DNA of 64,000 nucleotides from Tubulanus polymorphus (lineage: Eukaryota; Animalia; Nemertea): NCBI RefSeq assembly GCF_964204645.1, contig NC_134027.1, positions 13,858,485-13,922,484 of the forward strand. Reading direction: 5' to 3'. The notes under the pieces were generated by a model. That model had not been told where the DNA came from, did no database searches, and saw only the letters and a list, made by a program, of their open reading frames with translations. The position numbers and the translations under genes were made by a program. Positions 6,947-63,900 of this stretch are shown here, one piece after another; position 1 is the stretch's first letter, and every line of letters begins with the position of its first letter.

Positions 6947-8519
6947 CTGAAAAATAAAATTTAATAATTTACTCTAAAAATTAAAATACGGATATTAGGC
7001 ACAATTATCAATTGGAGATAGATATACAGGACAGCCAGCTTGTGCTTGTACACACTGAAAGAGTTTTGAGTGGGAACAATATCTGCAAGCCTGCCCTGGC
7101 GTCCTATGGCTGAGGGGAAAAATGACTGGTGTCCTTCATCAGAATTTATTTGCTTTGAATTATACATCACAGTTTGGTTACTAAGATACAATGATATTAT
7201 TGTCACATATGGTACAGATGATGCTAAGGGGGCAATAATAATCTTACTTGTATTACAACTACTACTAGTTTAGTTTGCTATATACCAAATTGTTTTTGTG
7301 ATCTTAATTTTTTAATCCACAATTGCTCTATTGTCTTTCTATAGGAATCATTTTTCATAAAGTTTTTTCAATGCCCATGATTGATCGATTGGGTACAGAA
7401 TGATTTAGTGTTGAAATGTGTTGAGACTGGATCATCAGTTTTACGACGAATTATTGACAAATTGAGTAATTGTCGTCGGTATAGTGAATCCCCCGTCTCC
7501 CCCACATGGATAAATTTGTCAGTCACTTATATTACAAAAAATTGCATATACTTCAGTTTGTGATTTATCTGAATTACACATATATGGACATATCGCACAC
7601 TTTTTTCCACATGTTTCACATCTATTTTGTTTTTTGAAAAACATATGGTTGTGTACTAGAATATCACTTTATGAAGTATGTTGTTTTCCGAACAAATACG
7701 TCTTAAAGGGTATTCCTAGACCATATGGTATGGCTTTTTTGGTAGTTTCTTGGTGACACAAGGAATAGTCCAAATAAAGATGTTTATCAGTTTTTTTGCA
7801 ATTTAAATCTGTATTTAGTGTATCATCTTTTATGTATACCAATACATCCATGTGATGGATGACTACTTCTGTTTCTGAATGTCTCAAATCTACTTGCTTG
7901 CTTTTGTTAATTGTATTTGCTAATTTTTGGAAATTTTGGAGTTTATCTAACAAGCCTACGCTGATACCCCAGATATCTTATCAACAACTTAAGTTCCAAT
8001 AAACCTAAAGATAATATTCTTGACTGCGGGGTTTATAAAACACCTTGTGGTTAATGTGATAAATTCTATATAGGTAAAACAGGACGATCATTGAATATAC
8101 GTAAAAAAGAACACCAAGAAGACGTCGTAAATGCCAAACCACAGAATGCTATTTTTTCACACACATTTGAAACTGGCCATATTTTTGACTTCTCCTCTAG
8201 CCAGTTGATATACCCTTGTTCTGATTTATAAAAACGTTGAATCCTTGAGTCAGCTATTATTCTAAATAAATTGCCCATGGGCAAAGTGTGGTTTACCTTG
8301 AAAGCTAGAGGTTGTTTGGAATAAGGGCACAAAGTTCCACAAGTTTATATTGTATTTTATCTTTCTTAAAGAATTATTTTGTAGTCAAATAAGACAAAAG
8401 ATATACATTTGGTTACGGTCCACGTCCAAAATTTTGTAGGGTACAGGTAGGCGTGGCAGGGAAACTATTATATTTTCAAAAAAAATATGTTTCGCAATAT
8501 GAAAAAAATATTCAAATAA

Positions 8520-9089
8520 GGCCATCCAAAAATACTTGTCTGTTTGCCGTAACACCGAATCAACTTTTCATAACACAGACTCAACTTTTCAGGATGAGTC
8601 GGTAGGTAGGTAGAAATTTTTTTTGCAAAATTTTTGGGCAAAAAAAAAATAATCACCTTTTTTACACGGAAACAATATCGCAAAAATCATCTACGTTGTG
8701 CACGGGAAATTTGTCTGATAGCGTAGATTTCGAGAATTATTCTAAAATTATAACTTCGTCCAGAGCGTCATCTCTGTGTTAAAAATGAAACAGTACATTG
8801 GATAGTGCGCGCTTTTACGTTAGTCACTATGAGAATGAATGGCAGCTTATTGAAACACTGCCAGTTTCCTGGAAAACTTAAATTAGGCCACATGTCAAGG
8901 CATGTTTTCACACGATGCACATTTGAATTCAAACATACGTAGCTCACACGTCGGCAGTGGGTCGGTCGGTCAGCCGTTTTTATCAAAAATAAAATTTATT
9001 TCAATGAATCCCAGAAAAAGTTTTCACTCGGTACCTTTGAAATCGGGTCGATCGGGTTACGGCGAACAGACCATTAATATGGGATGGCC
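8520..9089. mobile_element. PIF/Harbinger-type MITE inside family A copy 1
   Basis: TIR ggccatcc...ggatggcc, TAA TSD, absent from other family A copies; inverted partial copy at ~52965-53433. Confidence 0.75.
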
Positions 9090-9355
9090 TAAAATTCATA
9101 TGATGTCACATGTAAGAGGGTGGCTGAATATTGGGTCTTGGAAACCTCTTCCAATGTTGGCCGCGGAAGTTAAAATACCGGTACGGAAGAAATCGGCTAT
9201 TAGATCGTTTTAAATCCTGGACTTTACGACTACAATATTCCAACCTCGACCTGTACTTGTTATTTGCTGCTTAATATTTTCAGGTCACAAGAAATTACAA
9301 TTTATTACAAATTCTATCAAACAGAAAACACAGTGCTCATCTTCTGCTACGATTA

Positions 9356-9896
9356 TTCAGCCTAATTTCATGTCAAATGTGCACGCGTTTCAGCATCACC
9401 TTTAGTAGTGTACTGTACGAGCTTGTGTGTGTGTTGTGTAACACTCCGCACACACGTGGAGGCCTCGTCTAAGTGAATGTTCGCTTACACTTCAATGTCA
9501 ATCAAAACAATCACCGGGTATTAAAATGAAACAATACCTATGGCGGATGTGTGAAATAATTACATCCTCACCAGCAATGAGCATTTGAAATTTGCACGTA
9601 TACGGCACCTTGTCCAATGAAACGTTCAGCCTAATTTCATGTCAAATGTGCACGCGTTTCAGCATCACCTTTAGTAGTGTACTGTACGAGCTTGTGTGTG
9701 TGTTGTGTAACACTCCGCACACACGTGGAGGCCTCGTCTAAGTAAATGTTCGCTTACACTTCAATGTCAATCAAAACAATCACCGGGTATTAAAATGAAA
9801 CAATACCTATGGCGGATGTGTGAAATAATTTCATCCTCACCAGCAATGAGCATTTGAAATTTGCACGTATACGGCACCTAGTCCAATGAAACGTTC
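9356..9896. repeat. 269-bp tandem duplication within family A copy 1
   Basis: cctaatttca recurs at 9361 and 9630; near-identical units. Confidence 0.9.
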
Positions 9897-10373
9897 GCCA
9901 TTCTATGGCTTTCCCATAATTATTGTAGTAGCGCCGGAATTCCCCGTATATCCCAAAAACAGCCAATCCCATTTGCTCATAGAGACGACGCCCCCCAATC
10001 GAGGTCATTGCAATCTTATACGCGAGAGCTAAGAATTTTCCTGCCAAAAACAGTTTTTCGTAGAATTTTAACTCAGTTGACCATGTCATCGACGGAGGTT
10101 CGCCATGTCTTCAATCGCATCGATTCTACGTCGTTTAAGCCGAGAACAAATGAAACAAATGCTCACATAAAAAACGTACTGCGATTTTACATGAATTGGC
10201 TCAATGCCAACTTCATGTCGCTGACAAAGGTAAACCAAAAACTCTGACTTCACAGTCAATTCCAATTTAGGTTTCTCCCACAAAATAAACTCCTTAGTCA
10301 CTATATCCTTACAGCTATAACACTTAGTTACCTTGTTGCTATATTTTGTATAGTTATAACTGTACAATAAATC

Positions 10374-10417
10374 AGTTTTTGAAAATGGCTCATAGATTTG
10401 AGTTGAAACGTCAAACT
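10374..10417 (+). ncRNA. Degenerate hammerhead ribozyme at the 3' end of the inner Penelope element
   Basis: stem I agttt/aaact, mutated core ttgaaaa, stem II gctca/tgagt, GAAA-cgtc. Confidence 0.5.
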
Positions 10418-11004
10418 ATCAGATAGTTTTTCTTTTTTATTGTGGGTTTTTGTTGACTAATTGATATTGGACAGCCACTTGTCTATGGAAACCAACCCAG
10501 ATATCATCCACAGCGTTCGTATGCTAGTGGTTTCTTTGGTGACCTGTCTAGAAGTTCTTTCTCCTATTCCCCTAAATATATACATGTATAATTCATACCT
10601 AGTTTTCGACCCTATAGCTGTTCCTCCTTGCTGTATATAATGTTTGGCCATAAAAAGAAATTTATTGTTTTCCAAAACCATATCCATTAGATCTAATATT
10701 GTTTCAGTCGATACTAGATTTGTTCCAGTACGGCTGTCTAGAGCCTTTTATACAACTATTCTGGCTTCCTATGGGGGGCATTGGGATAAAGACCCATAAT
10801 TTCCAAAACAGCATTGAGTTTTTTGGTAAAGGCCCTTCAAATTTAGATATTTTGTTGAGGAGGTGTGTGGTGTCCTTGATGTAACTATCTAGGCTCTGGC
10901 CCGGGTAATGGATCCGGAGGCATTATGTATTTTTTCATTTTTTTGGAAATAGCACCCTGTTTATATAGATTGTTGACAAATTTCGTAACTTTATTAGATA
11001 TATT

Positions 11005-11272
11005 CAGGGGCGGATCCAGGGGCATGTTGTGACCATGTCGACCAATAAAAAGGGCATATCAGCAAAATTTTTGAAATTTTACTATTATTTTAGAGCTTTC
11101 TGAACATCTCTGAGGCATTTAGTCAAGAAACATAGGTTATATATTTAGGAAAAATATCTTGTGTATCTCAGGTGGTTACAACGGCAAATTTTGATACTGA
11201 GAAAAATAAAAAGGCACTTTAAAATTCTGACCGTGTCAGGCGACACGGTCGACACGGTCTAAATCTGCCCCG
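11005..11272. mobile_element. hAT-type MITE with 5-bp TSD, inserted in the Penelope ORF
   Basis: caggggcggatc ... aaatctgccccg; atatt on both flanks. Confidence 0.65.
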
Positions 11273-11959
11273 ATATTTCCTCTTTGATCTGAAGGAAATG
11301 ATTTGTATGATTTGTTTTGTGACATTTCATTTTCTACCTGTTCAATATATTTGGATGTATCCATTATTACTATGCCCGAGCCCTTGTCGCCTGGTCTAAT
11401 TACTATGTCTCCATCATTAAGGAGTTCTATCATAGCCTTTTCCTTAGATCTATTTAGGTTCTTGAGGAATTTATGTGTTTAACCTTTTATGATTTAGTCC
11501 TTTACTTCCTGTATATATAGGTTCAAATAATTGTCTCTTCCTGTCGGAGGCATCCATGTACTTTGTTTCTTTTGAAGGAATTGTTCTTTTTCATAGATGG
11601 GTTGGTTGTCTATTGAATCATCGTAAAAGAATTCCTTGAGTCTCATCCACAATCCAATTCCATGTAAATCAGTGATGACTTTGGCCATATCTAACTTTGA
11701 GCACGTAGGGACAAATTTGAGACCCTTGCGTAACAGGTTTTTTTGGGGTACCATTAATATCTTACTGGAAAGGTTAACGACTTCCACATTTTTTTCTTTG
11801 ATGTTTTCGGGTTCGGCATCTCTGTAATGTACTGATGGTTTATGGCCATTTTCTATTTCAAATATGGTTGTATGTTCTGCGACCTTTTCTTTATATATCT
11901 TTGCAGTATTATCGGCTCGTTTTTGAATTCGTGAATGAGTTTCCCGTATGCATCTACAC

Positions 11960-12350
11960 AGTCGACTTGTGAGTTCACTTATATTGAAATGGTTATTTCT
12001 ATGTATGATATCAATGAACATTTTTTCGTGATTACATTCACCAGGTGGAAATTTCATCCATGTATCTGCAACGTTGATGTTGGATGGCACAAATATGTCA
12101 ATTGAATATAAATACGATGTGACTATGATATCCGCCTCTGTAGCTCATGATTCAGTGTGACCATCTTCTCTTAGTACATTACGGATGTGAATATCATAGT
12201 CTCCATCTATGTATGGTTTGTATTTGACAATATTTGTTTGAAGCTCACATGCTATTTCTGTTCTAACCCTCTTGTATAATTCCTCATCACCATAAATATA
12301 GTGTGCAATACATCTATAGAAACAATTTCCATCACCTGTCATTTCTATTT
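11960..12350 (-). pseudogene. OTU-like cysteine protease domain inside the Penelope ORF
   Basis: IEMTGDGNCFYRCIA (Cys codon 12322-12324), S*ATEADI (Trp codon changed to TGA), IIHRNNHFN (His codon 11989-11991), all in one frame. Confidence 0.85.
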
Positions 12351-12774
12351 CTTCTGGATTAATGGTTCCACAGTGGCTGTTGGTAACTAAGGTCCTGAAT
12401 TTTTTCTCCTTGGTTTTTCGTAATTCATTTTCAAGTTTTCTCACTCGGTAGTCGATATTATCCAGTTATTCTTGTTTCATGTTTAGTTGAAAATTTCTCT
12501 CTAATGATGTCATTATTTGTTCGTCATCCATATCTAGTTTCATTATTTTACTCTTACAAATCACAATGGTTTTCTTTACTAATTTATGTGAAGCTGTGTT
12601 TAAGATTCCATTTATTGTCTCCAATTTCTCTGGTGTAAAATCAAAGGTTAAGATCCATTTAATCAAAAAACCTTTCAGTAGTAGCCCTTGGTCATTGCAT
12701 CTGGTCAAAAAATCTTTGTGACTATCATATCATGCATGTTTTTCTCGTAAACGACGGAGAAAATGGAACATATA

Positions 12775-13382
12775 CCGTATTTTCCGGTGTACAAGTTGAC
12801 TTGGTGTATAAGTCGAGGTCAAATTTTCAGTTTAAAGAGTTGTACTAAGTCGGTGTATAAGTGGAGTCCCGTCTTCATGTGTTTACATATGTCACTTTTT
12901 GAAAATATTGCTAGGGTCATTCTCATAGTAGTTGAGAGTCTTTACCACTGTTTGTAATTAATCAGTGGGATCTGTTGTTTCTGATAGTAAATTACCGGAT
13001 TGATTGTATCCACGTGTTGTATGTATTTTATATACATTGAATGCCGCGCACCTGTAGTCTAGTATTAGACTGCTGTGTATTGATTATTGGCACGCTGCCA
13101 CAGCAGCGCAGCTATATAAAGTGCTTTACAATTATACACGCGTGCGCTTTTCTTTCTCATTTGATTTTTAATATCAGTTAATTTTGAACCATTTCCAAAC
13201 TATAAGAAACTATTTTATTCTAAATTCTAATTGGTATGCGAGTGTAGCCTAACATAAATCCTTGAACTCTTAAACATCGGCAGTTTAAATGATATTGAAA
13301 GTGTATTCGGTGCATACGTGGACCTACGTTTTTTGGACATGATTTTGGTCTCAAAAACTCGACTTATACACCGGAAAATACG

Positions 13383-13383
<1 letters not shown>
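12775..13383. mobile_element. Tc1/mariner-type MITE
   Basis: TIR ccgtattttccggtgta / tacaccggaaaatacgg, TA TSD. Confidence 0.85.

Positions 13384-13453
<70 letters not shown>
13384..13453. repeat. (TA)n microsatellite
   Basis: ~70 bp of TA directly after the MITE TSD. Confidence 0.95.
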
Positions 13454-13456
<3 letters not shown>

Positions 13457-13787
13457 TATTACTCCCTGACGGTGACCTCAGCCATCATTCCAAGCAATGA
13501 ATGAGTCTGTTTTTAGAACAGACTTGCAGTTGCATTCCCGATAACACATGGCATATAGATAACAGGCCACGGCAATGCGCCACTCATATAACCACAGAAG
13601 GTGACAGCGTGCTGCAGGAACTCGGAAGTACGCCACTCAACGCAACGCACCAAGCCAACGCGCCAAGCTATTTTTGACAACGCACAATGAATCTCAATCG
13701 AACAAAAGACGAGTATTGATACACGTTATTTCCAGACAGGTTTCCAGAGCCATAAAGAAGTCAATAATACAAGAGTTCAATACTTAC

Positions 13788-30432: not shown

Positions 30433-33400
30433 TCAAAAATCACTGTCCAAATCTGATTCAATGTCAAATCCCTCAAAATTGTCACTATCACAATCTATAT
30501 CCGAGTTTGATGCTAGCGCCTCAACAAGTTCACTATCTACAATCAGATCAAGAAGTGTAGGTCTGGTAGATGTCGTGGACGATTTCCTTGGTTTGTAAGG
30601 TTGCTGATTTGGATGACGAGCACGGCGAGCACTATTAATCCACAGATTAACTGCATCTTGTGGATCATATTCTGAAACCGGTGGACAATCTGACGCAAGT
30701 CTCATCAGACTATTTATTGTTTTGTCACCAAGAGAAAGTCTCCAGTCACCAACAATGCGTTTAAGAAGTGAAAATGCGCGTTCTACACTGGCACTTGCGA
30801 CGGGTAAAACTAGGAGAATTTGTACCACATGCAGCACATTAATATAATCACTAGTTGTATCAGATAACTGGCGTGGAATTACCATTTTCCAAAGTGATGC
30901 TACACCTGTTTTTTTATCACTGAAGTGGGATTGCCAGTTTCGGCGAATAAAACGCTTTAGTTTAACCCATTCTGTTAAACCTCTCTCGGTAACGCATCCA
31001 TTACTTTTCAGGATTTCAGCAAAATGTTGACATATAGCTGTAATCTCCTTGTTTGCATATGCACCCAGGTCAGTGTTGCTCTGACGCGGCCACAGATGAA
31101 CATTTAGCACTTTGCCGCATTTTGACGTAATAGGACATGTGTCTAAGCTTTTGAAACGTTGCTCTATGCAGGTAGTAACGGAAACAACAAGTTCGTTCTT
31201 TGAAATATCATATACCTCAATTGACTGGTTTCCTGAACTTAATCGCACAAGATCCTGATAAATGATATTGCCTTCACTCTCACTTAAATCACCCTTCAAT
31301 CTCTTAATATTATTTCCATCTTTGGAATCTAGTAAAAGCAAAGCCGCGCAGCAATTATCCAGTTGTTCGGCTATACGATAGATCATTGTTTCATCATTTT
31401 GAAAAACTAGTAATAGTTTGGCTAGTTCTTCGAATATATCACATGAGAGATGAGCATAGAAAAGGAACTTTAAATTTTTCATCTTCCTTAGCCATCCTCG
31501 TATCTTTGCTGCATCTTCTTTTTTAATGTCTCGTCTTCAGGGTGATGTCATATCTTCTAGATGATCAATTATCATTGAATAATCTCTTATAAGTGAACGT
31601 AACGCTGACAGCTTGTGGGTAGCCCAACGTGAGCCGCTCGAATGAACAGGTCGGATAATGGATCGTTCGAAAACTTCAGCAAGTCGTTTTAGTTCTCTCC
31701 ATTTTTTTGTGAATTTTTATACATCAGATACAGACCAAGTTATACATCATCAATGCAAAAATAAAGATAAAAAAGAATTCAAAATAGGCCATAGAACAAA
31801 TTCCATGTTGAAGGACATCCATTAACATTTACAGGCTTGATTAGATTCTTTGCAAAAAGTTGATATCTTAAATAGTTAAATGGCTTTTCATTCGAGTGTG
31901 CAAATGGATGACATACTAGAGGAACGGGTGTTAAAAATTTTGATATTGTTTTAAGTCACTGCAGATAGACAGAAGGAGGCCCTTACTGGTTTTTTTTAAT
32001 TATTTTTTAAATAAAGAAGCTTATGGAATGTCTCACCTCCTGGAAGTATGTTGCCTTGAAAGCATCTTTTATTGCCAACTCTAGCCTGTGTGCAGCACAG
32101 TGAATGGATATCAGCCACTCTAAATTATTTGTGTACAAAGCCAGAACGCCATTCACACTTCCAAAGTTCACTGCAGCACCATCAGCTGATGCACCAACAA
32201 GTTGCTTTGTGGGGTCAATGTTCAGTTTTTCCAACGCTATATCGATAACTTGTTTTACACCCACTGGCTCGGATGCTGCTAATTTAGCCCACCGGGCGGC
32301 TTCATGTCCTTCAGATCCTTCGTGATCATTGACCGTAGACAGTTTAACATTTTTTGTTCCATTAATATAAGCCTGACAGTCAACAAGTTGTCTCTGCCCT
32401 TCATGCTTACGGCTAACAGCTGCATCAGGGAATTCCTTACATATTTTGCACCATATGACGGTGACCATTCCATCAGCTTCATTATAACCTAGCCAGTCCT
32501 TATCCCACTTTTTAACTGTCACTAAACAAGCTGGTCGTCCCTTTTTCTCAGTACTGTTAGAAGTAGGCTGAAGGGTTTGAGGTTTTCGCTTTGATGTAAC
32601 TGGTGGTTGTGGTATAGAGATAATCTGCAAAAAATAAATCAACAAATTTCATAACTTTTTTTAGACTGTGTGACGTGTAAGGCCTCTCTACTTCTAATCC
32701 AGTCAAAATAATTAATTTTTGTACTTGAATTATCATTGAATCGGATCCCTCTCCTGTGTATTTACCATATGTTTATTCTTATTTGTTCTCAGTTTGCTTA
32801 GGATTAAAAAAGGTCTGATTTTAACGAAGATAAATGGGCCGGAGAGAGAGAACCCGGAAGTGTTTTTCTTTACACACAGGAAATCTGTTTATTGCCTGTT
32901 TATTATCAATTCGCTCCAATTCAATCAGTTATTACTTACATGGAATTTAATCATAATAATAAATGAATTGGGCTCTTTTGTGTTCGATTTTATCTTATCG
33001 AATATGATGTAAATAAATTCACAGAGGGCAGCACCTCACGATTTGAAAATATCCACGTGCTCTTGCTGACACGAATACATCGTTTTTTGCAAATCAACCG
33101 CTAATATTTACACACATTAATAACACTGTTTACACACTTTACACACATATTTATCTAAAGATCGCACCACCACCATCTAAATATTTCTAAAACTTTTTTC
33201 GTACAGAAGACCGTGTGAGCTCTTTAACGTTTGTTGTTTACTTAAAATAATAATAATTAATAATAATAATTTATTGAGCCTAAAATCCATATAAAATATG
33301 CTCATTGCCTTTACAATATAAAAACACAATTTAAACATAAAGATAGAAAAAACAATTTACATCATTAGTTAAAAGCTTTAGTGAACAAATGGGTTTTAAG

Positions 33401-35169: not shown

Positions 35170-37667
35170 GTACCTTGTAGAGCTTTGGTTGACTCTGGAT
35201 CGATGGTATCAACTGTTTCTCGAACGTTTGTGAGGGAATCACTTCCGAATTTGAACATTTATCCAAGTGGAGATTACCTTTTGATTGTTACGTTTCCATT
35301 TCTATTAAATACAGGGAACATGAGCTGGATGTTTTAGCATTGGTTGTTGAGTCCACGCAATACCATCAACAAGTACCGTTTTTAATAGGAACCAATGTCA
35401 TACAACGGATGTCTGGGTTGCCGTTTTCAGAGAAAAGGGATTGTAAAATAGGTACGGTTTGATCGACACGAAACATACGAATTCAAGCAGGGACAGAAGT
35501 CATGGTACACGGAATGGTGAGAACCGATGGCGTTGGGGGTGTAGTGATGACTGATAATCACCTCAGGGGAGCTTCTGGGAAGTTAATCGTGATTCCCACG
35601 GTAAGTACACTCCCCGATGTGAAATGCTGTCGCGTTTCAGTCCGGTCCGTAATAGTAGTGAACATGATGTAAGTATACCTACCCAGAAACCAGTTTGTAG
35701 TCTTGTTCGAGTGGATGAAGTTGCAGTTAACAATAAGTCAAAAAATTTCGGATGGGCGAGCTGAGTCGAAGACCGAAGTATCGGATGAAGAGTTCTTTAA
35801 AGGTGTGGATCTCACGGGGGTTACAACAGAAGTTGAGAAAACCATGTTTAAGGAGTTGTTGGTGAAATGGAAGCATGTTTTTGCGCTCAATGACTTAGAG
35901 CTAGGCTCCACTGATTTATTTGAGCATACGATTCGTTTATCTGATGAGGAACCCGTAAATCTTCGATATCGAAGGATACCTCCCGGAGTGGTCGAGGAAG
36001 TGAGGCAACATTTGTGGATGATGTTGGATGCTGGAGTCATTTGACATTCCTGTAGTCCTTACTCCAGTCCGGTGGTATTGGTTCGAAAGAAGAATGGTGA
36101 GCTCAGGTTCTGCATAGATTATAGGGAGTTGAACAAGAAAACAATACCGGATCTATATAGTTTTCCATGAATTGATGAGGTCCTTAATAATCTAGCAGAG
36201 TGCGATCGGTTTACAGTGCTAGATCGGTTTACAGTGCTAAATCCGGGTACTGGCAGCTCAAGATGTCACGTCGAGATCGGGAAAAGACGGCCTTTAACGT
36301 GGGACCAGGCTTCCGTTTTTAAGAATTTAATAAGATGCCATTTGGTCTGACCGGTGCACCCGCATCTCTTCGGAGGCTGATGGAGCGAGCGCTAGGGGAC
36401 TTGAATTTACGTACATGTATTGTTTATATAGACGATACAATTGTTTTTTCAAAAGGGGCGAAGCAACATATCGAAAGACTGAATGAAGTATTTCGTCGGC
36501 TGGAGAAGGTGGGGTTAAAGGTCAAACCATCGAAATGTGTTTTCCTGAAACCAGAAGTTCATTACTTAGGGCATGTTATTTCCGAAAAGGGTATTCGGAC
36601 GGACCCAGCAAAAACCGAGACAATTCGGAAATGGGAAAGACCGACAACTATCGGCGAGTTACGTTTGTTTCTTGGATTTGCCAGTTTCTACCGACGCTTT
36701 ATTGAAAACTTTGCACCTATCGCAAAGCCGTTAACGGACAAGTTGAAGGGTGTTCCAAATGATTCGAAAGGAAGAGTTAAAAAGAGTCAGATGGATTGGA
36801 ATGAATGTATAATCCTTAAGAAGAAGTTTCGAACAAACAGTCGGGAGGAACAACATTTCGTGAAATATTTTCCTTCTCTAGCGATTGTGGAGGACATGGT
36901 TGTTCGAAAGAAGATGGTGGATGGAAAGGAATACGTGCAGGCTCTGGTTCCCGAGGACAAGAAAGATGTGATTTTGTATTACGCGCATGAAGCATTAGGT
37001 CACATAGGTAAGGATAAAATGTGGTCCGTGATCCAGTCCCGATTTCTGCGGCCTAAGATGTTTTCGGATATAGACCGGTATGCGAAGTCCTGTCGCAGGT
37101 GCGTTCTCAACAAGTCTCCAACTCAACAGGCACCATTAGAGTCCATTCTAACTTCGGAACCCTTGGAATTGTTGTGTTTGGATTTCCTCAAGCTGGAACC
37201 GTCGCACGGATTTGAGAACTTGTTAGTATTAACAGATCATTTTTCGAAGTTTGCCGTCGTTATTCCGACTAAGAACCAGCTAGCGAGATCCACTGCTAAT
37301 GCCATATTTGAAAACTTCATCGTGAAATATGGAATTCCTCGGAGATTGCACAGTGATCAGGGAAGGAATTTCGAAAGTGAGGTCATAAAGGAACTTTGTC
37401 AGTTACTAGGAATGGATAAAAGCCGCACTACTCCATACCATCCTCAAGGGAATGGGTGTGTTGAGAGGATGAATGGGACACCGATTCAACGCTTGTCTCT
37501 TTTAGAACCCACTCAGAAAGGCAAATGGAAAGAGTTCCTGCAAAAGGTGGTATGGCAATACAACTGTAACCCCCATAGTACTGTAGGAGTTAGTCCATAC
37601 TACTTGTTTTTCGGACGGGAACCTGTCTTGGCTTTGGATCGAGTTTTCGGATTGGATAAATTGAATG
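35170..37667 (+). pseudogene. Gypsy pol (protease, RT, integrase; RNase H deleted)
   Basis: ALVDSGS; MPFGL..IVYIDD; HHCC plus CLDF/HSDQG/VERMN integrase motifs; stops, frameshifts, 18-bp duplication near 36204. Confidence 0.9.
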
Positions 37668-37791
37668 AGGTTCCCGCAAAACTAATACCACTTGCGGCGC
37701 CACAGTACAGTATGACATCCGGTCTTCCCGTTGTCAAAGAAAACGTGCTGATTTACTAATTTTTTAATCGTCACTTATCATCAAAATAAAC

Positions 37792-38745
37792 ATGGATTCA
37801 GAGCAATATGAGAAATTTAGTTCAATGACACTCTTTGAACTAAAAGCTAAGCTACGTGAAAGGGGAATAAAAGTATCGGGAAAGAAAAAATTAATTGTAG
37901 ATCAGTAAGTCTGAATGAAACTGAAACACACAATTTTTTTTTACTTCCGGGTTCGCATTCACAGCCTACTTAAGACTTTTACGACTTAACAAACAAAAAT
38001 TGAATTACATGTAATAATTACACTATTTGAGCTGTTCATATGCGAAATTTTTTAATGTTACTGTAATTTGTGCGTCAGAAATTTCTTAAGATTTATTGAT
38101 GGTTATGTGATAGCAGGCCTATTCGTAAAATGACAATGCCAACAATGAACAATGAAGTTTATTCAAACCTGACACTACTACAAACGGGACCTTAAAAGGC
38201 CACTTCTGCAAATAATGATGATTGCCTTTAAACCATTTTTATTTTTTTTCTGTAGGTTAGTATTTTTCGATACAATCGGGAAAAAATTACCGGAACCTGA
38301 GTCGGAATATTGCATGCAGTTGCCGGATCCTTCCCTCTTCAAGGATATTCATGGTGGAATTAGAGAAGCTTTTCCGCCGTGTACCGCCGACAGAATAACG
38401 GAATATTTGAGCTGTTCCGATAAGAAGATTGAAGATTTGTATAAAGAAAGGTGATTAGGCCTAAGGCTGTCTCTATTTTCATAATGTTCATTATATTGCA
38501 CTTTCCTATGAGAAAATTGTGTATTTCTAGATACGACCGATATATAAGATCAACCGCCAAGAATGATCTGACATTTATAAAGGGGAATGTTTGGGCACAA
38601 ATGCGAAAAGCAACATTTTATGGTGTTGAAATATGTCTAAATCGTGATGGGGTTGTTGTCGAGTGTCAGTGTGAATGCGCAGTGGGCCAGGGACCAACAG
38701 CACACTGCAAACACGTAATTTGTATCCTTTACGGACTAGCTCATT
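37792..38745 (+). pseudogene. SAP and SWIM zinc-finger protein (exons 37792-37904, 38256-38450, 38531-~38745), truncated
   Basis: MTLFELKAKLRERGIKVSGKK; CQCECAVGQGPTAHCKHV; phase-consistent GT-AG introns. Confidence 0.75.
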
Positions 38746-39419
38746 TCAATATAACTAACTAGACCTCCTGGCGTGATTCCGATCAATACTATAACAGTAT
38801 TCCAATTTTTATACGTGGAGTAGGTAGCCTGTTGCGCAACAGGCTGCTTGGGTTTCTTTATAGGAATTTCTGTCCCATCAATTATCACTCTTGTTGTTGG
38901 AAATTTGATCTTGAAATCACTTGGTGAACAGAATTGGACTAAGTCCCTACTTGGACAAAAATTTATCTCTCTGAATTCGCACATTAGAAAATTAATCCAG
39001 GTGACAAAGATATTTGTAACCTCCTTTTCATTTATATCGAAAAATCCAGCTATTTCATAATTTGAATACGCTCGACGCAGTTTAATGAGGGTCATATAAA
39101 ACTCATCTTCAGCAGTTAAGGAAGGGGCTATGCCATAATAATAATTCAGTCCATTCACTGTTTCTCCAAGCAATGAAAAAATAAGGATAAAAGTATCATA
39201 ATCTTCTAAACCGGTGTTCAAGTGGAAACATTTTTTATCATAAACATAGTCCTTTGAAGAAAATCCAAGTCTTGCCGTTGTCTGTGAGCATCCGTTTCGA
39301 GTTACACAATTATCAGTTACATGCTGGCATTCATCTGCTTGTAAAAAAGTTTTTTCGGTTGCATCTGAGGCGACATCCACATTTGCACCGACATTGTCCC
39401 ATATTAGGGGAGGAAACAA
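38736..39419 (-). pseudogene. ISL2EU/Harbinger-like DDE transposase fragment
   Basis: EDEFYMTLIKLR HTH; RVIIDGTEIPIKKP..QQATYSTYK..NTV..LIGITPGG. Confidence 0.85.
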
Positions 39420-39532
39420 TTCAATTCGCTGGCGCTTTTTGCCTCGTTCAATTCGATCATTTTGTAAAATGCGTGCTGGTGTTCATCATAGTTGTTAAAT
39501 ATAGGGACTATATCTTTTTAGCAGCGGGAGAG

Positions 39533-47427: not shown

Positions 47428-47519
47428 CTGCTGCCTCTTAACCTCAAAAAGAAAGAGGAAAAAATCAGCGAGAGCGGCTACAGTGGGAGAACCTGGTGGC
47501 GAACAGATCTATCAATGGA

Positions 47520-48330
47520 TCGCCTACCAGGGACCCCACTCAAACTGCCATCCCTGGATGAAGGGACCATTCCGTAGAATTTGCCACATCCTGATGGGAG
47601 AGGGCATCGGCAACAACTTTCCTCTTGCCCGCCAGGTGAACCACAGACAGGTGAATCCCTCGGGCCTGACACCAGAGGAGAATCTCCTTGGTAAGGTCGG
47701 TAAGCGTAACCGATCTGGTGCCTCCCTGGTTCTGAAGATAGGCCCTGACCGTCTGATTGACGGTGGCTAACCACACGTGTCTGCCTATCAACCTCCTGCG
47801 AAAGAACCCCAGAGCCTTGCGGACCGAGCTTAGACCGAAAGGGAGAGCTGAGAACTGGTACTGGTGACCCTTCCACTTGACCTGCTGGTAACGACGCGAC
47901 TTGGGGTGAATCGGCACCTGAAAGTATGCATCCTTCAAATCGATTGACGACGCCCATTGACCGGGGGGGGGGGGGGGGGCGCCTGAACTACCTGCTGCGG
48001 TGTGGTCATGCGAAACTTCGGCACCCTGAGATGCTTGTTGAGGACAAGTCTATCACAGTGCGTAGGCCTCCTGAAGCCTTGGGCACTGTAAAGACTCTTG
48101 AGTTCCAGCCCGGAGAGGACTCGTTTTGAACCAGCTGGAGAGCACCATTCTGGAGTAACTCCTCCATAGCAGGGGTAATATGTGACTCTTGACCCCTCTT
48201 GGGTTGCATGTCTAGATGCTGTTTCATCAGGTAAGGCTTTGATTCGAACTGTAGACGGAAACCTTTCGAGACTACTCTTGTGGCCCATCCGTCTCCAAAC
48301 TCTTCGGACCAGCGCCCATGACCCTCAATG
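47520..48330 (-). pseudogene. DIRS RT/RNase H remnant (YxDD region deleted)
   Basis: SRVFTVPKASGGLRTVIDLS; LKDAYFQVPIHP..YQFSALPFGLSS fused directly to RNase H ..HLAGKRKVVADALS. Confidence 0.85.
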
Positions 48331-51300
48331 CTGGGATTTCCCAAAGGGTTTTGCAGAGGACTTTCCCCTACCCTTACGCTTGAAGGACCTGACCCTTCCT
48401 TGGCTACCCGCCCAAGACGAAGCCCAGAAAAAGACGAATCCTGACTCTGTGGAAGAACCAGGGTCGCTACCGCACTAGCAGTCTGCACCGGCTTCCTTGG
48501 AATCTTGAAAGGTCGATAAGACTTCGCCTGCGAATCCTTGATTTTTTGGTACTCCGCTACCACTGGGGCACACCAGCCCGAACAAAGGCCATTGGAGTGA
48601 CCCAGCGGGGCCCGGAACAGAGAATCTTGGGTCACCTCTGGGAGCTTAGAGCCAAAATCTTTTATCTAACAGGTCCTTGCCGCCAGAATCATGTTAGCAT
48701 GAGCCCTGACTGCAAGAAGATTGCATGTGACGCTGACCGTCCCAGCGACTGGATTATCCTATCCATACCGGCCAGAGCAGACGCAACCTCAGAGGGATCC
48801 GCAGACTCCTTTACAGTAGGGACTGAACTCCCTGAGCTCACCAATCAGTGACAGGAAGGCCATATCCTGGAAACTCCCGATTCTTGTGATATTCTCCAGG
48901 AATGAAAATGAAGAGACCACCCCGCCTTAGGCATTTGAATGTTAAGGACGGGGCGACCGAGAGTGCAGACAAAATTGACCTAACATCCGCGTCAACCGAG
49001 CCATACAATCGTTCAGTTGACCCGGGCGTACTTTAGTAGGATGCTAACGGGGAATCTGCGGCTCAGTGAGAAAAACTTTCCCTGCATGAGCCAGGCGGAG
49101 GATAGGCTAACCCAGTCGGCCGATCCTAAGCCCACTAGTGTGTATCGATCTGAGTCCACTCGGCCTTCACTGCAAAGGACTCGCGAAGAGCATGAGGGTC
49201 CCGTGTGGAGGCAGCATACGAGGCCATACACTCTGCCGGATCCACGGACTTAAGAGGTTTAGGCACAGTGGCACCATGCTTGCGGAAAACCTCTGAATGT
49301 GAGTGTGCGAAAAGGCCTATCCACTGGCGCCGAACAGTCTAAATAGTGGCGACCAAGCCCGAAGGGCTGGGTGGTCGGTTGATCATTACTGACGAACGGG
49401 GATCGGTCACACCGGATGGGATTGAAGGTGATGACTCCCTAGATCCCGAACGCGTGCCAGGACCTACCTCCAAGGAATACTCATCAAAATCCTTGGGATC
49501 AGGGACATTGAGGGGAACATCCTCAGGACAGAGTTCTCCGACTCGGACGACGATGGCCGCGAAGCTCGAGATCCTGACGGGCCGAGATGGCCCTTTACCG
49601 AATCCAATAGGATTCGTATTTCCGCCTGAAAAGCCTTAAAATCCTCAGCGAAAATGAAGTCGGACGTGGAGGCCGCCGGCTCAGGAGATAAAGACCTCCT
49701 GCGACGGTTCCTGAAAAATCGTCGAGGGCGAGGTGCTGGACCAGGCGCGTGCCCTTCTTCGTCGATAACGGTCATACGTTTCCTACTTGAAGAGGTCATA
49801 CCCGACGGCGAAGGGTAATACCTACTCCGCCCCTCTCCAGGGGACCGATACACTGACGAGCGGGCTTGCGGGGAAATTCGTGACTCTGATTTCCCTGTGG
49901 AGGCTAAAATACCGGGCCCAGCCGAGCGACTCGAAACGAGTCCTGATTCAGGTCTATCTGAAATCCCGATTGCGGACAAGGCTTTTAATAGGCACAGCCA
50001 CGGAACCCGGGCCCCGATAAGAATGGGTAGCCGGAGCCGAAGCACGGACGGTTTTATCCGGTGCCGCCTCGTTAAGGCCAGACTGGGACCCAGTGGAAGG
50101 TTCAAACTGGGACGGAACCGGAGCAGAATCGGGAACCAGTATGAGCCGAGGTTTAATGGCCTGTTGTACCACTGTCGCAACTGAAGTGACGGTGTGGTTG
50201 GCAGAAACCCGACGACTCCACGACTTTCTTAGCCGTCTTGCTGCGGGATTGTTGCCCCGAACTTTCGGCCAAGGGCTCCTGCAAGGGAACGTTGGCCTGC
50301 ACCCCTACTGGAGGTCGAACCGCGCCAGTAGGAGAGGAGGTACTGGACGATTCATGAACCCGAGAACGGGCTTTGTTATCTCTAGAATCCGACATATTTA
50401 TTGATTGCCGAAACAAAAGCAACAATAAACGACTCCCAAAAAAAATTTACCTCAACTTAAATTAATTATCAGAAATAATTATTAATGATTGGCGAAAAAT
50501 TAATCTTAAATTAAAACGATTATTAGAAATATTTTAATTAATGTATTTCCCTTAATTAATATTTCCTAAATCAAACCTATTATATGCGGTTTGAACTCGG
50601 ACTACTTGCTAATCGAGAAGCCCTGTGAAACCTCCCTGAAAAACGAGAGGAAGTGAACACGTGGTCAGAGACTGATGCCCCGGCTGTGAGAAAATCCGAT
50701 CGATTTATAGACGCATGTGAATCGTAAGACTTATTGGAATGAACTCACTGAAGAACCGGAGGTGCTAGCTTGGTCCTGGACCAACAAAACTACCAGTCAG
50801 CTTGAACACAAACTCAGAATAACGTCTAAGCAGCAGCTCCTTTGGAAAAGCGCACCAAAAATAGTGGTGCTAAGGAAGAAATTGAGTCATGTGGCTCGTG
50901 GCGGCGCCACCCGACGGTACCAGGTATTCCAAAAAATGTTTAGGGGTATAGTTCCCAAGCTAAGGTAAGTTCTAATATGTGCCCCACGTAATGTATCCTG
51001 AAGGCATCTTCGCTAGGAAGATTGATTACAAGTACTCTACCTCCCGAGTCTATTCAACAGAAGACTGTGTGGAGACATGATAGAAACGTACACATATCTC
51101 CATAAACTCAGCTCTCCAAGCAACTATGGTCTATCTATAAGTCTATCTGATCAAGAGAAAGAAGGGACACTTTCCACAGATAATTAATAAAGTTGGCTCA
51201 TATGAACTACTTGCAAATAAATTGTCAAGGTGGACATTCTGGACTACATTATTTCTCTAACTGAAGATACTGTACAATGCCACTCATCCAGAAACTAGGG

Positions 51301-60907: not shown

Positions 60908-63900
60908 AACTAGGGGTCCAGGGACACCTGCCCACTTGGGAAGTGGTTTTAAATGCTCAACAATCTAACAATTTCAATACATAACGCCACCTAGTGACCA
61001 TATACAAAAACCAATGACCTTGAAACCCACCACAATCATAGAACATGTCAGCAGCTATGATTTTGTAATTGATTGTGATAACAAAATATGCCTCCTTACC
61101 AATTTAATATGGAAATACTAAGTTATTCTACTATTCAACGCCGCCTGGTGACCATATGCAAAATCCAATGACCTTAAAACTCACCACAATCGTAGTACAT
61201 GTCATGAAATACAACTTTGCAATTGATCATGGTAACAAAATATGCCTAGGTACCAATCTAATAAGGAAAAACTAAGCTATTCTACTATTCAACGCCCCCT
61301 GGTGACTATATGGAATAACTAATGTCCTTAAAAACTCGCCACAATTATAGACGATGTCATGAACTACAACTTTGCAATTGATCATGGTAACAAAATATGC
61401 CTAGGTACCAATCTAATAAGGAAATACTAAGTTATTCTACTATTCAACGCCCCATGGTGACCATATACACGCTTCCATTTAAAATGGCCGCGTTAACGCG
61501 TGACGTCATGGGAGGAGAGACTCTGTTGTATAGCAATGAGCCGCTATCTCCGCCATTGAAAATAACAATAGTCCACTGAACAATTGCTCTATTTAAAACC
61601 GGTTTTGTGCTCTGAGATGGATGAAATGGATCTAGCAGCCGCTGACAATCGAAAGGTTAGTTTATTGTTCAAACATCATTTATGAAGTAAAAGTCGTTAA
61701 TCAAGTGGATTGAATGTAATGGGATACTTTAAGTGGCGTTTCAATCTCGAATAGAAAACACTTCCGGGTTTAGAAATTGGAACAAACGAAGATAATATCT
61801 GTAGTTAGGCCTAGTTGTAAGTGTCGAGACGCATCAAAAACTTTATTAACATGATAAAAACATCGTGAAAGTTATGGAATTGAAGTAGATTGATGCCAAG
61901 TAAAAAAATTTGACTTAGATTAGACCAAAAAATCGCTTATTTATTAGAAAAAAAAACAAACAAAAAACAAGGCAAGGATCAACAAGACGATGTGCCATGG
62001 TGACTCTCATCTGACCAGTCATTTAAAAAATGAAAGTTAATTAGCTCCTGTTGTGTTAGGTTCCAGGAATGAACAATTGAACCTTTGGCTTTAATTCACA
62101 TTCTAAGCAGCTTTATGGTTCTGTTTCTGTATGATTGTAAATTAGGCCTATGATTATGGAATAATTGAGCTTTTTAGTAGGTCTAATCTTTCTCTTGGAT
62201 TTTGTATTTCCAGGTGAACGTAATTGTTCTTGGTTCCGACGATGATAACAAGTTTCGGGAGGTGACCAATGATCATGATATTGATGACCAGGATGACTTA
62301 TTATCAGAGTTAGGCCTATCAGACTTATCAGATTTATCAGACTTGGAGTCAGGATGTTGAAGAAGCTGATGAAAATTCTGAGTGTTCATGTTTAAAGGTA
62401 GGTTTTTAGGCTTTTAATATTTTGATAATTTAAATTCTTTAGCAAGGCCCTGTTGTATATTAACCAGAAAGGTCACTCACAGTAAAAATATAGGCTTAGA
62501 TCTCAAATTGTACTGTGGGTTCATGTCAATTTGTGCTTATGGCTGGCCCTTGGGCCCTTACTGTGTACTGCACAATACATAAAGCATGTACGACATGATA
62601 CAAGGCAGATGACATATCAATGGGTAGGTATTAGTATCCAGATAGACCTATAACTATAAGGCTATTTCTGTACCTGTCAATATTCTGACACTCTCCTAAA
62701 TTTTTTTTTTAGCTGATAGAACAGGATATCCCAGGAGCCATTCTTACCAAACCACCGGAGCACCACAAAAATGAAGAACTTATGTTTTGGTTGGACTGCA
62801 GAAACTTAAAGTACAAAAGAAGTGCCAAAAAGTCAGATCTTGTGGATTGTTTTAAAAAATATGAATAGTGGTATCCACCATCAAATTGTCGATCCTGATC
62901 CACTTAATTGCTACACAAATAAAAAAAGGGCAGAGTGTACCAAGTGCAATCATCAGACTGGTCATTCTGACACTGCAGCGGGAAGCTCTTCTGATACACT
63001 GGCATCGATATATGATGATTTCGATAACTCAAACTTAGTTTGGGAAACATCCCTAAAACATGTTCCAAGGATGTTTTGTCATAGCCAATTGAAAAGTCAT
63101 GTAGAGAAATCTGGCAGAAAAGTTAAAGGACATACATATATAGAAAAAACACTTGAAAAAGGCTATAAATTTTTTTTTGAAAACTATATTCATGATTGCA
63201 AATGTAGCCAAGTGAATGACATGTGCCTAATAAAAGGTTTATGCTATAGATCACAAAAGAAAAATGCTGATCCTCATCGTCCCAAAATTGGCTTATCAAA
63301 TATTAACGGTGATGTGAAGATTGCCAAGTGTTCATGCGTAGCAGGGCTGAATGGTCATTGCAACCACATTGTTGGTCTCCTGTTCCTGCTAAATCATTGC
63401 AAAGCTATGAATTTTAAAGTTTTCCCTAGGGCAACCACATGTACTGAAAACCCTTAACGTTGGCATATTCCCAGCAGAAAGGATGGTCTTAGACCTGAAC
63501 CCATCATGGGAACTTGGGTTATGAAGCCCGAGTATGGGAAAGAGAAAAAGGGCATTAAGTGCACTCTCTTTGAGGCCAGGTTTGAGAGCCTACGCAATAC
63601 TGATGGAGTGGGATTGCCGCCAATTGTGTCATAATTGGCTGATCAAAAATACCTGTCTCAGGTATAAAACATCCCTTTCCAAAGAATACTCATCACAAAT
63701 TGCAATGAGAAATGGCAAACCAGTAGGAAGCTACAGGACCTAGAATTCTGGCCAAAACTGACATTTTTGTGCACTAAAAAGGTCATAGGACGGCCATCTT
63801 GAGTCAGATCGACCCAATTTTTCTTATGCTGATGAACCCTTGGTAGATTCAAATATGAACTAAGGATCAAGGTAATTGATCAAAGCGTCTTCAAAATTTC

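Follow-up and report, generated by a model that had tools for sequence, protein, structure and literature searches.

The genome of the nemertean Tubulanus polymorphus (NCBI RefSeq assembly GCF_964204645.1) raises the question of whether a Penelope-like element (PLE) can own a deubiquitinase. A 64,000-nucleotide stretch of contig NC_134027.1 (positions 13,858,485 to 13,922,484 of the forward strand; called the window below) contains a PLE copy which, according to an earlier sequence-only reading, carries an OTU domain in frame with its other parts, while canonical PLEs are described as reverse transcriptase (RT) plus endonuclease only. It was therefore asked whether the OTU belongs to the element and what it does there. 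The reading favoured below, at a probability of about 0.6, is that the OTU of this Neptune-type PLE is an accessory deubiquitinase that protects the element's own RT-endonuclease particle until integration.

The window copy is dead, being damaged by stops, frameshifts, deletions and two insertions. Its parts lie on the minus strand unless stated otherwise. As claimed, its N-terminal part is broken by stops only: 12729-11236 forms a single frame with four internal stops and no frameshifts. A fifth stop lies immediately upstream of 12729, and the frame extends back to an ATG at 12771. The described order of parts was also found, with coordinates for each: an N-terminal helical motif, the OTU, a linker, the motifs NLS..KGLKF and DKG, a broken RT, a CxxC linker, a GIY-YIG endonuclease and half a hammerhead. 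The OTU domain occupies 11965-12360. Its GDGNC motif lies at 12322-12336 (catalytic Cys codon 12322-12324) and its NHFN motif at 11983-11994 (catalytic His codon 11989-11991, followed by Asn), so that the triad and oxyanion loop are present (D133, C136, H247, N249). At 12145-12147 the window copy reads TGA where sibling copies encode W.

The OTU assignment passed the profile check, since Pfam PF02338 matched the piece 12145-12465 (E = 6.4e-5; score 23.9 bits, cut-off 23.3); the read-through protein scored 22.2 bits, slightly below this cut-off. The structural model of the domain had a pLDDT of 91.7. The best fold match was OTUD1 (E = 1e-9, Z = 16.5, root-mean-square deviation 2.6 Å, 130 residues aligned), followed by OTUD3 (Z = 15.5) and then by viral OTUs, and the OTU profile matched OTUD5 at E = 7e-19, which makes OTUD1, OTUD3 and OTUD5 the closest solved OTUs. 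The PLE OTU shares with these cellular enzymes the fold and the Cys-His-polar triad, but only 15-21% identity, and it has a signature of its own, DG...SWATEAE.

At least seven loci of the family, all of them decayed, were found in the Tubulanus genome. All three siblings that reach the OTU region carry the OTU (86-91% DNA identity), so the segment, whose absence would have spoken against the claim, was missing from none of these. Three further siblings without the OTU are 5'-truncated at the window equivalents of 11863, 11714 and 11499; because the truncation removed the OTU region, they are uninformative on OTU loss. Sibling L022 lacks the middle of the RT and was tied to the family through nearby endonuclease and pre-RT pieces. 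Its segment 1400-3530 was observed to be rearranged: the endonuclease end lies on (TA)n, one piece of the OTU is inverted, and the edge bears a long hairpin.

The other OTUs opened in this genome sit in Helentrons, next to Rep/helicase-like open reading frames (ORFs). The abundance of OTU-bearing Helentrons is what could suggest that the OTU of the window copy is a chance in-frame insertion, for example from such an element. Helentron OTUs are only 30-34% identical to the window OTU, siblings and intact relatives share the PLE OTU, and this OTU follows the RT tree; the explanation was rejected, its probability being negligible. As a separate observation, loci L024-L030 (G000 contigs C1, C7, C8, C39 and C2) are near-identical Helentrons with an OTU and, by eye, an upstream domain resembling the herpes-tegument-like VTD.

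Relatives of the window element were found in other animals and in metagenomes. With the N-terminal half of the read-through protein as the query, seven proteins of 1017-1218 amino acids (aa) were obtained, and all seven contained the OTU. A profile of these proteins retrieved 66 proteins at E<=1e-100; PF02338 was precomputed for 38 of them, and many of the others were fragments. Intact ORFs uniting OTU, RT and GIY-YIG, as the sequence-only reading had envisaged, do exist: 22 protein clusters contained all three according to our own profiles, a count that is circular for members of alignment A1, from which the profiles were built. Full-length OTU-PLEs were present in two named hosts, Pinctada imbricata and Dreissena polymorpha, and partial or fused models in Mytilus edulis, Acipenser sinensis and A. 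ruthenus. The sturgeon OTU-PLEs are P0013, P0191 and P0195; the gene model of P0191 has an upstream PYRIN fusion. Considering that the other named hosts are bivalves, horizontal transfer is possible. Bivalve and sturgeon gene models called "OTU domain-containing protein" or "uncharacterized" are transposon ORFs. In metagenome loci L041, L044 and L073, the endonuclease, the 3' untranslated region (UTR) and the next ORF follow head to tail, an arrangement typical of PLEs.

Conservation of the OTU was evaluated in 67 of the 212 collected proteins, namely those with an OTU plus a PLE motif. The catalytic Cys was present in 60/60 proteins covering it, the His in 64/65, both in 58/58, and the Glu of the WATE motif in 67/67; the near-invariance of Cys and His spans proteins that are approximately 25-45% identical. 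The third catalytic position varied (N in 28 of 65, D in 17, S in 10, E in 5, T in 3, other in 2). Purifying selection was detected by the ratio of nonsynonymous to synonymous substitution rates (dN/dS, Nei-Gojobori), which was 0.14-0.30 (p<=3e-4) for the OTU in five of the six within-family pairs. Among the intact-family loci L031, L033 and L035, it was 0.30, 0.24 and 0.14; in the same comparison, the adjacent linker gave 0.79 and the RT 0.11-0.25. Within the Tubulanus genome, it was 0.23 for the window copy and L022 (p = 3e-5) and 0.17 for L022 and L023. Between families, OTU dN/dS was saturated or nearly so.

The OTU was also inherited together with the RT. In a set of 26 proteins that carry the two domains together, each of the seven OTU splits with support >=0.9 recurred in the RT tree, and OTU and RT distances were correlated (Mantel rho 0.68; 0/2000 permutations as high). 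Because the OTU occupies the same slot in siblings and intact relatives, is under purifying selection and is co-inherited with the RT, it is almost certainly a selected, integral domain of the family, as its appearance in the window copy had suggested. The simplest history would be that the OTU was acquired once, long ago, and then passed on vertically. A tree of 84 domains gave no answer as to the donor, the PLE OTUs not forming one supported clade.

The history of the domain was followed in an RT tree of 49 rows (18 of an earlier 67 were dropped), which was built by a quick search with SH-aLRT support only. OTU- and JAMM-bearing elements formed one clade (support 100), apart from eight outgroup PLEs. 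Nested among the OTU elements were two OTU-less lineages with an otherwise normal ORF, P0022/P0177 and P0208 with loci L032, L038 and L041. The loss of the OTU in two lineages indicates that this domain is accessory. On a third branch (support 99), no OTU was found; most members start with a JAMM domain, and P0200 has neither. One search gave 52 matches, of which the top eight were JAMM-PLE ORFs. The HxH..S..D zinc motif was present in 8/8 JAMM-PLE clusters (cluster member P0214 standing for P0019) and the OTU in 0/8. Pfam JAB matched a JAMM-PLE at E = 1.8e-11, and P0214 matched AMSH-LP in the PDB at E = 4e-38 over 171 aa, that is, the whole catalytic domain. The lineage comprises P0214, P0281-P0287 and P0023, with an N-terminal JAMM of the AMSH/STAMBP type; one member is from the barnacle Amphibalanus, whose gene model begins inside the JAMM domain. 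Three trees disagree on whether the JAMM lineage is sister to the OTU clade or nested in it.

In one outgroup PLE, P0141, a Ulp1/C48-like domain occupies the OTU slot (residues ~225-405; a single sequence on a single contig). Its Atlas features scored 0.96 to clusters in which 17-39% of members carry PF02902; Pfam gave no match for this domain, and the PDB a weak one (E = 0.009). Further JAMM-bearing mobile elements were also noted: the JAB domains of P0309 and P0304 accompany a non-LTR-like RT in one protein (1407 aa) and PF18701 in the other.

The replacement of one domain by another is the strongest argument on function: the folds of OTU and AMSH-type JAMM are unrelated, and what the two are known to have in common is the removal of ubiquitin. 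It is probable, judging from the structural models, that the OTU cleaves ubiquitin or a close relative of it. Residues 22-165 of the relative P0017 were modelled with the ubiquitin of this genome, and the complex scored 0.65, with 0.02 for the best control; among solved pairs, 51 of 78 attained the mark used for this score, and among mismatched pairs 2 of 108. The runs agreed in >=91% of contacts, with a partner pLDDT of >=89. In the model, ubiquitin residues 68-76 touch the Cys and His loops with the tail in the cleft, and the invariant E100 contacts ubiquitin residues 42 and 70-73. The cleft residues are conserved, unlike the distal surface. In the full-length model of P0002, the OTU is flanked by two low-confidence linkers that are predicted to be disordered. 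In PLEs, the endonuclease nicks the target and the RT copies from the 3' OH, i.e., target-primed reverse transcription (PMC8557442). An OTU tethered by such flanking linkers would take ubiquitin off the RT-endonuclease particle of the element itself or off its surroundings, and the particle would thereby survive long enough to integrate. Given activity, the chances are roughly even that this particle is the substrate.

Another assignment of the same activity is that an active deubiquitinase acts on host substrates, such as lysine-63 (K63) chains, histones that carry ubiquitin near the nick, or signals in immunity and trafficking. This is rather unlikely, and it draws on the AMSH-like domain of the related lineage, which belongs to a K63-specific family, on the nearest solved OTUs being OTUD1, 3 and 5, on tethering through disordered linkers and on the DNA-repair role proposed for the OTU/Ulp1 of Ginger (PMC2836005). 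Self-protection of the particle was ranked first and host K63 or chromatin substrates second, both being compatible with the present data.

The sequence-only reading had offered two functions, countering ubiquitin-based host control and self-processing; the exchange between OTU and JAMM favours the former. Self-processing, in which the OTU would cleave the ORF product into its mature parts, would fit the position of the domain near the N-terminus between flexible linkers; some viral OTU-fold proteases do process polyproteins, and the turnip yellow mosaic virus (TYMV) and PLP2 folds occur low among the fold matches. A conserved diGly, the only kind of cleavage site considered, was not found in the linkers (GG in 2/38 upstream and 4/38 downstream); this, the normal ORF of the two nested OTU-less lineages and the AMSH-type metalloprotease used instead by the related lineage make self-processing improbable. 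Slightly less probable still is that the OTU has little deubiquitinase activity and is retained for binding ubiquitin, for a structural role or for acting on a different ubiquitin-like modifier. The variable distal binding surface and third catalytic position would agree with this, but not the almost invariant catalytic Cys and His at protein identities of ~25-45%.

Several points weigh against protection of the particle by an active OTU. The OTU was lost twice, and one OTU-less lineage exists in several copies; therefore, any benefit of the OTU is conditional. The Cys and His counts are biased to intact domains by the way in which these were discovered, and they take in the window protein and the chimeric model P0199, whose Cys alignment is doubtful. 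For the window copy and L023, OTU dN/dS was 0.56 (p = 0.25). The complex was modelled on P0017 rather than on the window copy, and without the family alignment; because OTU-ubiquitin complexes have already been solved, the model reflects likeness and not binding, and its score may stem from likeness to these structures. Conservation of the predicted distal ubiquitin surface did not exceed that of the remaining residues of the domain (0.34 vs 0.41, p = 0.87). The K63 specificity of AMSH hints at signalling or trafficking over proteasomal rescue. Finally, transposon OTUs are called untested in PMC9741609.

Assignment of the element to PLEs relied on features of the RT and endonuclease. KGLKF and DKG are present in the window copy and the full RT in relatives; GIY-YIG lies in the same ORF, with a profile match at 7272-7571 and aligned motifs of relatives. 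Profile recognition of RT and GIY-YIG was partly achieved: profiles made from intact relatives recognised both in the window copy, but Pfam gave no relevant match on its broken RT and endonuclease pieces. Even in intact relatives, the Pfam GIY-YIG match was weak (2/7, below the cut-off). The endonuclease of such PLEs has a CCHH motif and conserved R, H, E and N residues. Both Cys and the later His of CCHH occur in relatives. At the conserved His position, four residues beyond the catalytic Arg, Asn was observed in the subclade of the window copy (7440-7470), which includes the intact P0002-P0005, and His elsewhere. Rfam found no hammerhead in the window (14 matches, all below gathering scores). 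The full minimal hammerhead core is kept in sibling L023 and in L041, and its 5' half in the window copy. Among the window repeats shown, there was no pseudo-LTR (long terminal repeat) or tandem arrangement.

The Neptune PLEs of Craig et al. (2021; PMC8557442) share with this family a single ORF with GxKF, DKG, RT and C-terminal GIY-YIG, a 3' hammerhead, a CX2-5CxxC zinc finger in the linker, separated from the GIY motif by a spacer that is long here and short in Nematis, and the tandem arrangement seen in the relatives. The 24-residue CxxC-to-GIY spacer of P0002, part of which is deleted in the window copy, agreed by eye with rows of Fig. S2. The family thus appears to fall in the Neptune clade, as motifs compared by eye suggest; the RT trees use outgroup PLEs and no named Neptune references. 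The difference is that the family described here adds an OTU of ~130 aa in the N-terminal part of ORFs of 1017-1218 aa. The text of PMC8557442, as far as it was available, contains neither "ovarian tumor" nor "ubiquitin", and the available supplement neither OTU nor the string GDGNC.

The remaining parts of the window copy are as follows. The ORF start and the N-terminal helical domain with its RxxSHxxFLxxC..KGF motif lie at 12529-12771 (stop at 12730-12732; long helices in the P0002 model). The OTU is followed by a variable linker at 11785-11964, which is predicted to be disordered in P0002 and corresponds to the linker with dN/dS 0.79 in relatives, and by the pre-RT region at 11273-11784 (KGLKF 11713-11727, DKG 11380-11388; two stops). 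The frameshifted RT core (10496-11004) has a ~123-nt deletion near 10899 and the catalytic DD motif at its end. The C-terminal part of the RT and the thumb, placed by alignment to siblings and by profiles from relatives, lie at 7679-7977 and are followed by a deletion. The RT-endonuclease linker (7572-7678) has a zinc-finger-like CxxCx3CxxC motif at 7588-7620 and a ~54-nt deletion after it, so that the RT, thumb and linker all suffered internal deletions. The frameshifted GIY-YIG endonuclease at 7272-7571 (YAIFC/VGETG at 7491-7548) was located by the relatives' profile and sibling alignment, and the 3' UTR at 7124-7271 ends in the 5' half of the minimal hammerhead (7124-7142), as compared with the full core of L023.

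Both insertions reported in the copy are real, but their ends were corrected to 7978-10495 and approximately 11005-11272. The former, on the plus strand and thus antisense to its host, is a nested 3' fragment of a different PLE of the Penelope/Poseidon type; its GIY-YIG spans 7978-8260, and a motif like a hammerhead lies near 10380-10415. It splits the catalytic motif of the RT, is bordered by a target duplication of 9-10 bp and is interrupted by repeats in turn; it had 20 genome matches, the best at 91-96% identity. The latter is a later insertion with short inverted ends, resembling a miniature inverted-repeat transposable element (MITE) and not found in siblings. A later MITE with inverted ends of ~36 nt, recognised by its inverted repeat and junctions, was inserted in TA at 12774-13388, outside the PLE. 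Once it is discounted, the 5' side of the element is a (TA)n microsatellite at 13389-13461, the probable insertion target. A preference for (TA)n targets is a trait of the Neptune clade. In this family, (TA)n adjoins the 5' end of the window copy and the 3' end of L022; the C7 copy adjoins a GT-rich repeat, and the other four of the seven loci have none at the ends that were viewed.

Other mobile elements were noted in passing. By eye, further transposon-like ORFs of the window lie at 30433-32648, 36323-37759, 38736-39482, 47478-50228 and 62810-63457, and their kinds include hAT-like, Gypsy RT-integrase, Harbinger-like, DIRS-like and SWIM-finger. Tandem, distant PLE-like RTs in 830-aa frames occur near contig ends in G000 (starts of C4, C8 and C10; C30, C34, C54, C63, C65 and C66); they are possibly telomere-associated PLEs.

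Fused deubiquitinase-type domains are known from other transposons. Chlamys-1_cBra of Chara and Dualen are likewise retroelements with a fused cysteine protease of a deubiquitinase family, but they belong to a permuted PLE clade or to non-LTR elements, and the protease is Josephin-like and, in Chlamys, C-terminal with weak homology (PMC8557442). The OTU and VTD of Helentron/Helitron2 and the OTU/Ulp1 of Ginger1 are similarly exchangeable accessory deubiquitinases on a transposition enzyme (PMC9741609, PMC2836005, PMC11417382, PMC6431247), and deubiquitinase activity has been shown for the VTDs of Helitrons (PMC9741609); these are DNA transposons, however, and the Helentron/Helitron2/Ginger1 OTUs formed a separate group in the OTU tree (0.97). 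NeSL and Utopia-1_TSP also have an N-terminal deconjugase-type domain, present or absent by family, but they are non-LTR elements with a restriction-like endonuclease, and the domain is Ulp1, not OTU or JAMM (PMC4640811). No OTU- or JAMM-bearing PLE was found in the literature search; one may be described in Repbase Reports, Dfam, subscription journals or bioRxiv supplements, which lay outside its scope. In sum, the OTU of these PLEs is a real domain, integral to the element and under selection, and the literature searched did not yield it. Its theme is known from other transposons.

It may tentatively be proposed, though with more doubt than confidence, that the papain-like OTU and the metalloprotease JAMM of one PLE clade and the Ulp1-like domain of another PLE answer an unrecognised ubiquitin/SUMO-dependent defence of animals against PLE ribonucleoproteins. 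If this is true, these would be the first counter-defence enzymes of PLEs, and the JAMM lineage would be the first retrotransposon found here with a captured AMSH. A clade that gained, swapped and lost deubiquitinase domains and still includes intact elements offers a natural comparison of OTU, JAMM and none on one RT backbone. Such a comparison makes testable the older suggestion that ubiquitin limits transposition and that transposons fight back.

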